Of a stretch of DNA of 64,000 bases, positions 5,833-11,957 are shown piece after piece. Where the stretch lies: positions 79 to 64,078 of the forward strand of contig JAPPEG010000101.1 of NCBI GenBank assembly GCA_028875345.1, written 5' to 3'. Under the pieces are notes generated by a model. That model worked only from the letters and a program-made list of their open reading frames with translations, was not told the origin of the DNA and did not search any database. A program made the translations under genes and the position numbers. This stretch comes from Gemmatimonadota bacterium (GTDB lineage Bacteria > Latescibacterota > UBA2968 > UBA8231). The first letter of the stretch is position 1, and each line of letters opens with the position of its first letter.

Positions 5833-5847
5833 GCACATTTCGTGCCA
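5833..5847 (-). promoter_or_regulatory. sigma54 -24/-12 promoter
   Basis: Minus strand TGGCACGAAATGTGC (GG-N10-GC), upstream of the gene at 5635; a paralogous site lies at 8597-8611. Confidence 0.8.
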
Positions 5848-5864
5848 GCTATTCGATCACGCAC

Positions 5865-5896
5865 AAAAAAACCCTTTAGGATTACCCTAAAGGGTT
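5865..5896 (-). terminator. Intrinsic terminator
   Basis: Minus strand AACCCTTTAGG-GTAAT-CCTAAAGGGTT followed by a T-run. Confidence 0.75.
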
Positions 5897-5969
5897 GAAA
5901 AATATGAGTTTAAAAATGTAAAGGAAGCTTTTCTATGATTCGCAGTTCACCCGTCGTTGCTCATCTTGT

Positions 5970-6028
5970 TGAATAATTTTTTGTTCGTGTTGAACAACTT
6001 TTTATTTACTTGAACAACTTTCTGTTCA
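5970..6028. promoter_or_regulatory. Putative bEBP enhancer (UAS): three TGAACA-N6-TGTTCA-like palindromes
   Basis: Sites start at 5970, 5991 and 6011 (20-21 bp spacing), about 125-180 bp upstream of the sigma54 promoter; duplicated at 8734-8791. Confidence 0.7.
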
Positions 6029-6131
6029 TCTCATAGGCATCTCTTTTAATAGCCGAACCGCGGGCACCCGCGATAGACGCGCAGAGCGTCTGTATCAGGA
6101 TGACAGCGAGGAGTGCGTATCTAGCGTGCAT
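6006..6131 (-). pseudogene. 5' stub of the M6 protease gene (first 28 codons, then 13 unrelated codons and a stop)
   Basis: 6047-6235 matches 5177-5365 (189 bp, offset 870). It reads MHARYALLAVILIQTLCASIAGARGSAI-KRDAYEMNRKLFK*. Confidence 0.8.
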
Positions 6132-8628: not shown

Positions 8629-8660
8629 AAAAAAATCCTCCAGGATGGCCCTAAAGGATT
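8629..8660 (-). terminator. Intrinsic terminator (paralog of 5865-5896)
   Basis: Minus strand AATCCTTTAGG-GCCAT-CCTGGAGGATT plus a T-run. Differences from the other copy are one compensatory pair and two G-U wobbles, valid only on the minus-strand RNA. Confidence 0.78.
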
Positions 8661-8733
8661 GAAAAACAAGAATCTTAAAATTGTAGGAGGGATTTTTCTA
8701 CGCTTCGCCGCTCAGCTATTGTTGCTCGTCACT

Positions 8734-8791
8734 TGCACAACTTTTTGTTCATTTGAACAACTTTTTATTTATATGAACAAATATTTGTTCA
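8734..8791. promoter_or_regulatory. Putative bEBP enhancer (UAS): three TGAACA-N6-TGTTCA-like palindromes
   Basis: Sites at 8734, 8754 and 8774 (20-bp spacing); the third site, TGAACAAATATTTGTTCA, is a perfect palindrome. Confidence 0.72.
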
Positions 8792-8828
8792 TCGGGCCAA
8801 ACTCCTGTTGCCGTGATAACGTGTGCAT

Positions 8829-11800
8829 TTACGACGACTTCTTGGGCCGTTGTATCCCATACTTGCGCATCCGATAGCGCAGCGTCTGTGCACTCATGCC
8901 CAACAAGCGAGCAGCACCCCTTTCGCCAGAAACTACCCAATTCGTCCGCTGCAGCGCCTCGACAATTCGCTGCTTCTCATCCTCGTCCTCATCCTCCTGT
9001 TCAACCGGCGACTCAGATGCGGGCCGCGACTCCGCCGCTCCCGCCGACAGCACATCTATCACCTTGATGCGCTTTCCCTCACACACAATCACCGCCCGCT
9101 GCATCCGATGCGCCAACTCCCGCACATTCCCCGGCCAAGCGTGCGCCTGCAAATATTCCATAACCTCATCACTCAACGTCGGCTCTGGACGCTTAAACCG
9201 CTGGGCATACTGACGCACAAAATGCGCCGCCAACACCGGAATGTCCTCCCGCCGCTCCCGTAGCGGCGGCACCACCAGCGGAAACACGGTCAAACGGTAG
9301 TACAGATCCGCTCGGAACGTCCCTTCCCGAACCGCCCGTTGCAAATCGTGGTTGGTCGCCGCAATGATCCGCACATCCACCAAGATCGACGCCTTACCCC
9401 CGACGCGCGTCAGGCGATCTTCCTCTAGGACATTCAGCAACACCCGTTGGGCTTCCAACGGCAAGTCGCCGATCTCATCGAGGAACAGCGTGCCCCCATG
9501 CGCCCGTTCAAAAAAGCCTATTCGCTGCTCAATCGCGTTCGTAAAGGCCCCCTCCTCGTGGCCGAACAGTTCGCTTTCGACAAGCCCAAGGGGCAGTGCG
9601 CCGCAATTGACGGCGATGAAGGCTTGCTCGCGGCGCATGCTCATGGTGTGGATGGTTCGGGCGAGCAAGCCCTTGCCCACGCCGGTCTCACCCAACACCA
9701 ACACCCCCGTGTTCGTCGCGGCCACCTGCTCCACCCTTTTCAGGAGTTGGGCCATGACCGGATTTTGGCTGAGTATATGCGGAGTCCGTCGCTTGTCTGG
9801 GTCATCGGCGACCACCCGCACCTCCAAGCTAGCCACCTCCGACTCCAACCCATCCTGATCTTGAGTCTTCACCTCAAAGCGATATTCACCGGCCGGCACG
9901 CCTCGGTACGACACCTTATTGTCGAGCGAAGGCGCACTCCACTCGGCTGCCGGACCATAGCCGACCAGCCGATAACGGTAGCGCATCGGCGCTACCGCAA
10001 TTCCGAAACGGATGCCCTGGAAATGAATCACTATCTCATCCGTGCCCTCTATATAGGACGCGGCTTGGGACGACTCCACAAGGCGCCCCTCCACAACCGG
10101 ACGGATCACGATACCTAGCGGTCCATTGCGAGGCTGGTACGCGACCAACCCCACCTTCGTCCCAAACCACAGCCGACCTTGGCTGTCGCACAGAATCGCT
10201 TCAATCGTGTTCATTGGTGCTGATTTTCCCAGACGGATGGGGTGAAAGGTCCGGCCATCGTAATTCAAGACGCCCCCGCCGTTGGTCCCAATCCACAGCC
10301 TCCCCTGCCGGTCAACTCCCAACGCCAGAATCCCATTGGCCGAAAGCCCACCTTCCTCCACTGTAAACTGACGCACCTGCTTGGAGTGGAAGTCAAAAGC
10401 AAAAAGGCCCTGCGCCGTCCCCACCCAAAGCGTGCCCTCATGCTCGTACAAGACGTTCACATAAGAAACCGCTTCTAACCCGGCTATATCCAATGCCCGG
10501 AAAAGGCCAGCCTTATAAGAATACAACGCCGGCCTTTTTCCATGCGTACCGATCCAGAACACGCCTTCTTCATCCTGCAGCACGGCGCGGCAAGGGTAAG
10601 AAAACAACTCCTTGAATGCGGTGAAGCGATCTTCTTTAATCCATCCGAAGCGCCCTTCGGACGTACAGACGCTCATGCGCCCTATCCGGTCTATGAACAG
10701 CCCCGCGATTTCTTCGTGGCGGCCCTCGGCCACCTCGATCACTTGGGTTTCTTGGCCCGTTCCCTTGAAGACCTGTCCGTCGGGACCACCACTCCAGAGT
10801 TGCCCTTGTTGATCGACCACCAGCGCCGAGACCGCCCGACCCGTTGCCACCGGGCGAATCCGGGCGTCCTCCAAGCAGGCCAAACCGCCTGCCGTGCCAA
10901 TCCAGATCCGGCCCTCGCGGTCTTCTGCCAAACACCGAACCTCCCGGTCGGGCAACCCATCGGCTTCCGCGTAGCGCTGGACGCGGACTGGATCGCAAAA
11001 AACCAGCCCACCACCCCATAGTCCTATCCAGATGTTCCCCTCGCGATCCTCATAGGTCAGGCGCGTGTCCGCAAAGGGGAACCACGGCAAGCCGACCGAA
11101 AACGAACGCCAGTCCTGCCCATCGTACACCAGCACGCCCTTGCGAGCCACCCACAGCCAGCCCCGCTCGTCCAAGCGCACATCCCGCATTCCGTGCCGCA
11201 CTACCTCCCCGTCTTCAAGCTCGCTCCCCACATCAATTAAGTCGAACTGCTGTTGCTGTGGATCGTAGCGGCCGATCACAGCTTCGCTGCCTATGTAATG
11301 GAAGGCAATCCACAGATAGCCAGCGGCGTCGCCAGCGAACTTCCAAGTCCAATGCCCTTTGCCGGATCCCACGCGGAAGTCCATGCTCATGCGCCGACCA
11401 TCCAAGCTAATAACGCCCCACTTCAACGTCGCCAGCCACGTCGTCCCCACCGCGTCGGTGGCCATATCGTACACCTGCCCGATAGGCCGATCCCCAATCG
11501 CCGTCAAGAACTCGACGACCCGCCCCTTGGAAAACCAGCCAACCCCGTTGCCGGTCAGAATCCGCATCGTGCCGTCCGACTGCTTCTGCAAGCCCAAGAT
11601 GTCGTTGCAGGGCAGGCCGTCCTCAATGGTATATACCTGAAAACTCCGTCCGTCGTAGGCGGCTAGCCCGCCGCCGAGCGTCCCAAAGAGCAACCGCCCA
11701 TCCTCGTCCTCGGCGATGGCCATCACCGTCAGGTGGGGAATCCCGTCCACTCGGCCAAAGGTATCAAAACGAGTCCCGTCGAATCGACTGATCCCACCAT

Positions 11801-11957
11801 CGGCGGTGGCGATCCAGAGTAGCCCTTGGCGGTCTTGGTAGATTGCTTCTACCTGCATCCCGGCCAACCCATCAGCAACGGTGTACCGATGCCCTAGTAC
11901 ATGCTCCAAGGACTTCTTATGTTTTGGGATTTCTGAGACTTCGCTCCCGTCGTCCAT
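8829..11957 (-). CDS. sigma54 activator with N-terminal two-component-regulator beta-propeller (Reg_prop) repeats and Y_Y_Y domain
   Basis: Repeated YxxxDGL / EDxEGxxWIGT motifs, YRYRLVG...Y...PAGEYRFEV (YYY), then GETGVGK, GAFTNA, DEIGD and HTH. Confidence 0.93.
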   Translation of the reverse strand: MDDGSEVSEIPKHKKSLEHVLGHRYTVADGLAGMQVEAIYQDRQGLLWIATADGGISRFDGTRFDTFGRVDGIPHLTVMAIAEDEDGRLLFGTLGGGLAAYDGRSFQVYTIEDGLPCNDILGLQKQSDGTMRILTGNGVGWFSKGRVVEFLTAIGDRPIGQVYDMATDAVGTTWLATLKWGVISLDGRRMSMDFRVGSGKGHWTWKFAGDAAGYLWIAFHYIGSEAVIGRYDPQQQQFDLIDVGSELEDGEVVRHGMRDVRLDERGWLWVARKGVLVYDGQDWRSFSVGLPWFPFADTRLTYEDREGNIWIGLWGGGLVFCDPVRVQRYAEADGLPDREVRCLAEDREGRIWIGTAGGLACLEDARIRPVATGRAVSALVVDQQGQLWSGGPDGQVFKGTGQETQVIEVAEGRHEEIAGLFIDRIGRMSVCTSEGRFGWIKEDRFTAFKELFSYPCRAVLQDEEGVFWIGTHGKRPALYSYKAGLFRALDIAGLEAVSYVNVLYEHEGTLWVGTAQGLFAFDFHSKQVRQFTVEEGGLSANGILALGVDRQGRLWIGTNGGGVLNYDGRTFHPIRLGKSAPMNTIEAILCDSQGRLWFGTKVGLVAYQPRNGPLGIVIRPVVEGRLVESSQAASYIEGTDEIVIHFQGIRFGIAVAPMRYRYRLVGYGPAAEWSAPSLDNKVSYRGVPAGEYRFEVKTQDQDGLESEVASLEVRVVADDPDKRRTPHILSQNPVMAQLLKRVEQVAATNTGVLVLGETGVGKGLLARTIHTMSMRREQAFIAVNCGALPLGLVESELFGHEEGAFTNAIEQRIGFFERAHGGTLFLDEIGDLPLEAQRVLLNVLEEDRLTRVGGKASILVDVRIIAATNHDLQRAVREGTFRADLYYRLTVFPLVVPPLRERREDIPVLAAHFVRQYAQRFKRPEPTLSDEVMEYLQAHAWPGNVRELAHRMQRAVIVCEGKRIKVIDVLSAGAAESRPASESPVEQEDEDEDEKQRIVEALQRTNWVVSGERGAARLLGMSAQTLRYRMRKYGIQRPKKSS

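Follow-up and report, generated by a model that had tools for sequence, protein, structure and literature searches.

The window, i.e., the whole stretch of 64,000 nucleotides (nt) of contig JAPPEG010000101.1 from a Gemmatimonadota bacterium (GCA_028875345.1), was examined up to about position 22,800 and harbours there two paralogous genes for bacterial enhancer-binding proteins (bEBPs), two related regulatory cassettes with sigma-54 promoters, and genes for secreted proteins. The sequencing runs that contain the stretch are sponge metagenomes, and the homologues named by NCBI come from Gemmatimonadota metagenome-assembled genomes. Every gene of the locus, from the long bEBP to a giant gene, is located on the minus strand. 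Along this strand from 5' to 3', the long bEBP is followed by cassette B, the short bEBP, about 530 nt of relic sequence, the gene S1, a gene fragment, cassette A, a mini open reading frame (mini-ORF), the gene S2 and the giant gene. Cassette B (8791-8597) lies between the 1042-amino-acid (aa) propeller bEBP and its 353-aa paralogue, which is reduced to the AAA+ and helix-turn-helix (HTH) parts. Cassette A (6028-5833) lies upstream of S2, a truncated secreted-protein gene, and of the gene for a giant FN3 protein. The bEBP genes and the cassette elements are as follows.

8829..11957, minus strand: long bEBP, 1042 aa, Reg_prop, Y_Y_Y, Sigma54_activat, AAA_lid_14 and HTH_8 (Pfam)
8734..8791, no strand: enhancer B, three dyads (8774-8791, 8754-8771, 8734-8751), 20 bp apart
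8627..8660, minus strand: predicted intrinsic-terminator hairpin B, stem 8634-8660 with 12 pairs, two of them U-G wobbles when read in gene sense, and T7
8597..8611, minus strand: sigma-54 promoter B, TGGCACGGAATGTGC, -24/-12 elements, predicted start at about 8585
8493..8552, minus strand: 19-codon upstream ORF with the only good Shine-Dalgarno sequence after promoter B (GGAAGGAAG), read from the DNA
7471..8532, minus strand: short bEBP, 353 aa if started at the first GTG, 339 aa if at GTG 8490, AAA+, lid and HTH_8 only (Pfam, motifs)
5970..6028, no strand: enhancer A, three dyads (6011-6028, 5991-6008, 5970-5987), 20-21 nt from start to start
5863..5896, minus strand: predicted terminator hairpin A, 12 pairs (5 G-C) and T7, stem 5870-5896
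5833..5847, minus strand: sigma-54 promoter A, TGGCACGAAATGTGC, -24/-12 elements, predicted start at about 5821

Each cassette comprises about 200 nt, with three 18-bp dyads close to TGAACA-N6-TGTTCA, a hairpin followed by T7, and a TGGCACG-N4-GTGC promoter located 15-17 nt beyond the T run. The dyad centres are about 155-200 nt upstream of the predicted start sites, and enhancer B begins 38 nt past the stop codon of the long bEBP. The mean column identity of A and B is 81% in a 294-column alignment including flanks; blastn gives 76.8% over 203 nt. An earlier sequence-only reading of this DNA had placed two homologous modules, each with three dyads, a terminator and a -24/-12 promoter, at 5833-6028 and 8597-8791. 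Coordinates and elements are present as it described them; the orientation is corrected here, with the genes on the minus strand.

The exact 18-mer dyad occurs twice in the assembly (G000; 5.03 Mb, 404 contigs, 87% complete), both times at this locus, with 0.12 occurrences expected from a base-composition model. When up to three mismatches are allowed, 1775 matches are found against 1095 expected. Phased arrays of three dyads are restricted to four places, namely cassettes A and B and two positions in contig C146, and at least four promoters of the assembly (A, B, two in C146) carry TGAACA-type dyads. The genome-wide palindrome scan proposed along with the sequence-only reading did recover phased dyads near -24/-12 sites, at four promoters in all, among them the two that had been described. 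The TGGCACG-N4-GTGC site is present 24 times in the assembly, and eight of these are within or identical to cassettes. A DNA pattern search of the metagenome contigs for the dyad arrangement of modules A and B gave no matches.

A profile built from both cassettes finds 11 real copies in the assembly (two each in C286, C146 and C297, three in C216, one each in C175 and C25). A twelfth profile match (nhmmer), in C88, was rejected, being a look-alike terminator behind obg and not a cassette. Another five propeller bEBPs share 56-61% identity with the long bEBP, and each is followed by a cassette with the same hairpin and promoter and with other repeats: CCACGG-N-CGTGG, TACGGAAAATCGTA, CGTATTTAATACG or GTCGTTCAAAA. 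The genes downstream of these cassettes encode secreted FG-GAP, FlgD_ig/Por_Secre_tail, PD40 and redoxin proteins. Cassettes A and B are not a unique pair but members of a genome-wide family, which includes about seven cassettes that have other repeats and come after the other propeller bEBPs.

The hairpin was analysed in 42 distinct cassettes of nine genomes. Pairing is retained in 95.6% of the cells, and five of the 11 pairs change on both sides. In the shuffle test, at most one of 500 shuffles reaches the observed values in four of five measures (one of 500 for the changes on both sides), and five of 500 reach the covariation score. A shift of the pairing partner by a single column lowers the pairing to 67-80%, and the frequent changes from U-A to U-G are compatible with the gene-sense RNA only. 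By this pattern of covariation the hairpin is predicted to be an intrinsic RNA terminator, which would insulate the sigma-54 promoter of each cassette from upstream read-through. In one cassette variant the 3' arm is divergent and the 5' arm (TTTTTCAGTCTGTTAGG) is kept; the T-rich tract that precedes the 5' arm (e.g., window 8645-8665) is also retained where the 3' arm diverges. The 5' arm, kept despite a differing 3' arm, may double as a protein site. It appears to resemble the IHF core consensus.

In the long bEBP, Pfam finds Reg_prop in four stretches (E 6e-43), Y_Y_Y (E 4e-9) and Sigma54_activat (E 1e-65), and no kinase domain. No 19-residue window reaches a Kyte-Doolittle value of 1.6, i.e., there is no hydrophobic segment, and the sensor presumably is a cytoplasmic propeller. 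Relatives of full length are 91-92% identical. The orthologue in genome G021 is 90% identical and shorter by about 220 residues at the N-terminus; those of G001 and G022 are found in pieces. The N- and C-terminal halves take the same position in unrooted trees, so that the protein is not an obvious chimera. The architecture as such is abundant (7033 of 8000 scored proteins at E <=1e-10). In a literature search for a bEBP with such a sensor, which did not extend to subscription journals, none of the 15 papers listed out of 72 matching ones contains the phrase 'two component regulator propeller'.

In the short bEBP the AAA+ match (Sigma54_activat, E 5e-67) begins at residue 30 of 353, with no domain N-terminal to the core. 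The sequence-only reading had module B in front of a bEBP reduced to AAA+ and HTH, in good agreement with its Pfam content of Sigma54_activat, AAA_lid_14 and HTH_8 only. About 10 codons of the end of a Y_Y_Y domain are kept. The Walker A/B motifs, a canonical GAFTGA loop, the R-finger region and the HTH are intact, and the identity to the C-terminal part of the long bEBP is 72-73% at the amino acid level. The AAA+ motifs GETGVGKG, LFLDEIGD and RIIAATN align in both proteins. Both have the AAA+ domain and HTH_8 of bEBPs, a sigma-54 gene is present in the genome (rpoN, Sigma54_DBD match of 203 bits in a profile search, contig C278), and -24/-12 promoters are found at the putative targets.

The recognition helices of the long and the short bEBP, LLGMSAQTLRYRMRKYGIQ and LLGMSHQTLRYRMRKYGIQ, differ at one position (A versus H), which bears out the near-identity noted from the sequence alone. 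What such helices bind can be approached by comparison. We surveyed helices and repeats in G000, G001, G002, G003, G005, G012, G013, G021 and G022 and in metagenome contigs. The loci surveyed contain 46 reading frames with the helix motif, about 36 of which have, by inspection, a repeat array within 330 nt. Eight helix classes emerge, each with one repeat type across different genomes:

helix xQTLRYRMRKYGI, repeat TGAACA-N6-TGTTCA/TGTGCA
helix NHQ(Q/K)LVYRMEKYGI, repeat ...AAAAAATTATGCA
helix SDRMLQYRMRKYGI, repeat TGAGCAAAAAGTTGCGCA
helix SHKALRYRMNKYDI, repeat GGGGCAAAAGGTTGTCCC
helix GPEKLRYYMRKYGV, repeat TGAACGGAAAAGTCGTTCA
helix (N/H)PEKLRYRM(R/Q)KYGL, repeat CCACG...CGTGG
helix NPExLRSRMRxYGL, repeat TACGG...CGTA
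helix GPEKLRYRMRKHGL, direct GTCGTTCAAAA repeats

The pairing also holds in two metagenome contigs in which the HTH is retained. Since orthologues share helix and repeat by descent, the informative events are the changes of class. The loci L018 and L039_947, both of G002, are 90-100% identical in the AAA+ core, 42-75% in the last ~190 nt of the gene and 35-42% in the array, and their identity breaks about 190-250 nt before the stop codon. Similarly, L004 (G000, C216) and L029 (G022) are 83-95% identical up to the last 60 nt of the gene, 38-48% in the array and 77-90% in the hairpin. Near-identical cores thus carry different helices and repeats, and helix and sites appear to change together, via exchange or focused divergence. 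Among the proteins paired with TGAACA-type dyads, residue x of LGMSxQTLRY varies (H, A, V, D, E), so that the A/H difference between long and short bEBP is unlikely to alter the specificity. The covariation of helix and repeat supports binding of a cassette by the bEBP encoded just upstream. With helix and repeat types co-varying across about 40 cassettes, the two bEBPs of the window very probably bind the same TGAACA-type dyads, as the sequence-only reading had proposed.

Sensor-less forms are found beyond the window. G002, G012 and G013 contain 11 family ORFs of 335-415 aa, three of which are 74-75% identical to the short form of the window. A maximum-likelihood tree of the AAA+/HTH part with 33 rows unites all short forms and the long form of the window in one clade (100/100) and the 18 other long forms in the other (100/100); the midpoint root serves for drawing only. 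According to this tree, the sensor-less bEBPs, which come from several genomes of the genus, belong to a conserved clade. The short forms retain the last codons of the Y_Y_Y domain, in the short forms of G002 and G012 the similarity (tblastn) extends about 50 residues upstream across one TAG, and the G021 short form is sister to the local long orthologue (support 1.00). These observations together point to repeated N-terminal truncation of long forms. The window's short bEBP has a dN/dS ratio of 0.39 in comparison with the long paralogue and of 0.30-0.40 in comparison with short relatives, and all eight family pairs together give 0.26-0.40. These values indicate moderate purifying selection on the short bEBP. 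A related-locus search with the short bEBP returned 80 loci of many phyla at 39-52% identity, which are generic AAA+ matches and uninformative for the locus.

Eight of the short bEBPs examined are intact, lie behind a sigma-54 promoter and have a repeat array that can be read; the arrangement of sites and genes was compared for these. Seven of them (window, L038, L039_4201, L041, L042, L043, L045) are located behind repeats of their own helix class, and these cases span three specificity classes. The eighth, L136 in G021, belongs to a locus where the 90%-identical long orthologue is followed by a cassette, the short bEBP and another cassette; this short bEBP lies behind the TGAACA-type dyads of the upstream long orthologue and has a helix of another class. 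Two further copies are broken, one with repeats of its own type (L046) and one with another type (L047). At L018, L022, L039_947 and L044 the hairpin is present upstream and no -24/-12 element is found; two of these four are the neighbours of the S1-giant operon in G002 and G012.

We read the region as one sigma-54 regulon under two paralogous activators that recognise the same DNA, with feedback, a reading that we place slightly on the probable side. The cassette would be an insulated unit, in which bEBP dimers occupy three dyads aligned along the same helix face, a terminator halts upstream read-through, and the -24/-12 promoter lies about 155-200 nt further downstream than the dyads. The long bEBP would be made from a separate promoter of its own and, once its sensor is satisfied, would assemble on enhancer B and switch on the short bEBP and probably S1. 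The sensor-less short bEBP, if active alone, would bind the dyads of cassette B, i.e., of its own promoter, as well as cassette A in front of S2 and the giant FN3 protein gene and the two cassettes of C146. A feed-forward step combined with positive autoregulation would be expected to result in amplification and possibly hysteresis. The short form would derive from a long form of its own clade that lost the N-terminal part, and the locus would later have been reshuffled by recombination between the repeated cassettes.

Several observations weigh against this. The L1 loop of the long bEBP reads GAFTNA in place of GAFTGA. A dN/dS of about 0.4 is high for an AAA+ ATPase. The first start codon of the short bEBP has no good Shine-Dalgarno sequence and is overlapped by the out-of-frame upstream ORF 8493-8552; the TAA of that ORF ends 2 nt before the in-frame GTG at 8490, and the two could be coupled translationally. 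For window positions 5200-9000, no RNA runs are listed as containing the stretch. When orthologues are counted once, the seven own-type cases shrink to about five loci and are not independent, and L136 in G021 makes for a cascade whose two tiers share no enhancer. The short bEBP that precedes the S1-giant operon in G002 and G012 has no -24/-12 element, hence autoregulation is not universal. Finally, the fresh rearrangements described below suggest that the present wiring may be young and untried by selection. The self-amplifying sigma-54 cascade of the sequence-only reading is thus partly supported, by its layout (own-type dyads, an intact short bEBP, the recurrence in G021), and is not universal (G002/G012, L136); the long form as trigger, constitutive activity of the short form and a bistable switch are putative. 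Feed-forward plus autoregulation is a plausible interpretation, well grounded in layout.

The loop deserves a closer look, as it bears on how the two proteins might share the work. The long and the short form may act only as mixed hexamers, comparable to HrpR/HrpS, with the short form supplying the GAFTGA loop. Their AAA+ cores are 72-73% identical and encoded in tandem, of the two only the short form carries the canonical loop, and HrpRS is a known co-dependent pair (PMC3105312). Yet GAFTNA, GAFTSA and GSFTGA all occur among the 33 family members, the first two commonly and in several short forms, and the short bEBPs of G002 and G012 have no long partner of the same class. We consider obligatory mixing improbable. 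Alternatively, the short bEBP could compete for the dyads and damp the long form. It has the same HTH, and its expression would depend on a target promoter of the long form, which would make for negative feedback. A pure competitor needs neither ATPase nor sigma-54 contact motifs, all of which are intact here, and in G002 and G012 the short bEBP is the only family member beside the target operons. Such damping is very improbable in our judgement.

Downstream of the short bEBP the following features were annotated.

7080..7104, minus strand: relic sigma-54 promoter upstream of S1, -12 ATGC kept, -24 lost, 7 extra bases between (alignment)
6131..6937, minus strand: S1, secreted protein of 268 aa, no known family, signal-like N-terminus (Pfam, orthologues)
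6047..6235, no strand: 189-nt copy, 100% identical to 5177-5365, comprising the S1 end and the first 28 codons of the giant gene
5261..5635, minus strand: S2, 124 aa, in-frame internally deleted S1 copy, signal-like N-terminus kept (alignment)
3..5261, minus strand: giant secreted protein, >1753 aa, signal-like N-terminus, runs off the contig

Orthologues of S1 adjoin the giant gene upstream in G002 and G012. There is no strong terminator between the short bEBP and S1, which are therefore probably co-transcribed from promoter B. The S1 leader aligns with the intact promoter-to-S1 leaders of G002 and G005; it has lost the -24 element and gained 7 bases, and S1 is probably left to rely on promoter B. 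Two candidates for a third sigma-54 promoter, in the stretch from the short bEBP to S1, were dismissed: the site at about 7365-7383 has the wrong spacing, and that at 7080-7104 is broken. S2 consists of the first ~100 codons of S1 fused in frame to its last ~35, and the fragment ORF 6006-6131, a 28-codon copy of the start of the giant gene, continues into enhancer A. The giant protein has at least five FN3 domains, serial repeats of about 70 aa and a HEIGHLLGLNH motif. The sequence-only reading had module A drive a giant protease operon. The giant gene does lie downstream, preceded by the mini-ORF and S2. As to the protease, the HExxHxxGxxH motif is present, but the match to the M6 domain model TIGR03296 (37 bits) stays below the cut-off of 110.8, and a comparison with PDB sequences gave no match at E <=0.1.

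The 12-codon mini-ORF at 5776-5814 (minus strand) follows promoter A, with a Shine-Dalgarno sequence and the start ATG GCG/T TCG TTC GTT (MASFV...). A MASFV start with Shine-Dalgarno sequence is conserved after many cassette promoters (L001 at about 2262, L042, L045) and may be a leader peptide or plainly a part of the cassette. The leader at 5649-5745 (minus strand) encodes ...LYVVWLDAERRQAIRTMLFDQ*. This peptide resembles the C-terminus of the propeller-protein gene before the L038/L039 cassette (...YIVRLDAAGQQATRKMLLVQ*), and the leader may be the relic 3' end of an older gene.

Judged by these alignments, the locus is a recent mosaic of duplications and deletions. Short DNA unitigs from two studies support both flanks of each copy of the 189-nt repeat without differences; they are too short to span the repeat. 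One X2 contig links module A, the 189-nt repeat and S2, which would be a second tandem S2-cassette A unit or a mis-join of the graph. In view of the mosaic, recombination between repeated cassettes might have left behind the duplicated module and the short bEBP as mere by-products, the short copy being neutral or decaying and the long bEBP alone of importance. The 189-nt repeat of 100% identity, the internally deleted S2, the broken promoter upstream of S1, the truncated or frameshifted bEBP copies elsewhere (L046, L047, L020, the C146 relic), the poor translation start of the short gene and its dN/dS of about 0.4 would all fit such an origin. It is less compatible with a 353-codon frame that is intact and keeps all catalytic motifs, with a dN/dS well below 1, with intact orthologues of 74-75% identity in G002, G012 and G013, and with a layout that recurs with three specificities. 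We hold a mere by-product to be quite unlikely and retain the short bEBP as a putative second activator.

Whether it would be active on its own is touched by contig C146. The first feature of C146 is the 3' end of a gene with the repeat type of the window's giant gene, of which it may be the continuation. A cassette 94.5% identical to cassette B comes next, followed by a 427-aa propeller-only ORF (L001, G000, 625-1995), an in-frame TAG and a 27-residue relic of a bEBP HTH. The second cassette, with TGAACA-type dyads, precedes small genes including one for a DUF2589 protein. A propeller-only protein of G001 (L140) shares 76.5% identity with the 427-aa ORF; its gene and, immediately after it, that of an intact short bEBP lie behind one cassette. 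The short bEBP could be functional but controlled by a partner, in the manner of PspF/PspA and HrpS/HrpV, and the circuit would be a gated amplifier and not a self-locking switch. If a sensor-less activator were part of a purely positive loop, any basal expression would suffice to lock it on, and this speaks for a brake. The authors of the Desulfovibrio vulgaris regulome raise partner control or a cascade for the four domain-less proteins among its 37 EBPs (PMC4641369). No gene resembling that of PspA or HrpV was seen in the locus, no search aimed at one having been made, and at least one propeller-only homologue (the ORF downstream in L043) has a signal-peptide-like N-terminus, so that the family may be secreted and not a cytoplasmic partner. 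On balance, partner control is unlikely, and autonomous activity of the short bEBP remains our working assumption for the two-activator regulon.

Across the genus, the comparisons suggest a wider picture. The recognition helix and its own site array, both within about 150 nt across the stop codon, would be swapped between paralogues as one specificity cassette. A single recombination event could then rewire an activator together with its target, and would have yielded at least eight seemingly orthogonal pairs of helix and site. The same recombination would repeatedly separate the AAA+/HTH half from a sensor bEBP, place it downstream of the cassette that belongs to this bEBP and create sensor-less, self-activating latches downstream of the parent sensor. 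Taken jointly, these proposals are tentative and, in our estimate, fall just short of an even chance.

The genes farther upstream of the long bEBP (cupin, DUF6785, SDR, PhyH, GH32) look unrelated. Between the cupin gene and the long bEBP, a 21-nt inverted repeat is located at 11993-12091, with arms 57 nt apart and 95% complementary. In run X1 its contig depth is about eightfold that of the flanks. Two partial copies are found on other contigs of the assembly, C224 and C293, and the sequence may represent a small repeat element.

The functional statements made here derive from the comparison of sequences of uncultured bacteria. Without an activator, sigma-54 promoters stay silent and hence make good switches. 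If the proposed wiring is true, the locus would represent a compact amplifier or memory device, in which a sensor-bearing activator triggers a sensor-less copy that feeds back on the same enhancer, and this memory circuit would control secreted or surface proteins of an animal symbiont. The cassette family would illustrate how DNA-binding specificity and sites can co-evolve when they are physically linked, and it offers candidate orthogonal activator/enhancer pairs as parts for synthetic circuits.

Among known systems, NtrC at glnAp2 of the glnA-ntrBC operon in enteric bacteria is a bEBP on tandem dyads upstream of the sigma-54 promoter of its own operon. Positive autoregulation and the assembly of oligomers on phased sites, predicted here, are common to both. 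NtrC, however, keeps its receiver domain, needs phosphorylation and does both jobs as one protein, whereas at our locus a sensor form and a truncated paralogue would share the sites, and a terminator is located between sites and promoter. In the hybrid two-component systems of Bacteroides, the Reg_prop/Y_Y_Y sensor lies in the periplasm, with a membrane helix and then a histidine kinase behind it; the long bEBP has the same Pfam sensor families but no hydrophobic segment, and Y_Y_Y is joined directly to AAA+. PspF and HrpRS are controlled by partners (PspA, HrpV), and their genes are not known to be driven by a sigma-54 enhancer of their own.

PspF and HrpR/HrpS are bEBPs without a regulatory domain (PMC3128695, PMC3105312). 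They resemble the short form in consisting of AAA+ plus HTH only, and HrpR and HrpS are tandem paralogues; the short form of the window differs in descending from a propeller-sensor bEBP still encoded next door. In the Myxococcus xanthus cascade of Nla28, Nla6 and ActB, EBPs activate other EBP genes as well as their own operon via tandem-repeat sites, and each is reported to have a separate input domain or kinase as well as a DNA specificity of its own (PMC9765219). Here, the second tier has no input domain and would share the specificity of the first. In D. vulgaris, four of 37 EBPs lack N-terminal domains, and auto-regulation is predicted for DVU2894 (PMC4641369). These statements are predictions, and neither an adjacent sensor-bearing paralogue nor a cassette family is described. 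RedR1 and RedR2 of Aromatoleum anaerobium are two nearly identical bEBPs on the same sigma-54 promoters (PMC10084136); both are reported to be of full length and to differ in the N-terminal tail alone. Cascades and autoregulation of EBPs (PMC9765219, PMC4641369) and domain-less EBPs (PMC4641369, PMC3105312, PMC3128695) are thus already known. Three things are new at this locus: a sensor form is paired with a truncated paralogue that would share its specificity, the cassette carries a predicted terminator as insulation, and helix and sites are linked in a family of cassettes.

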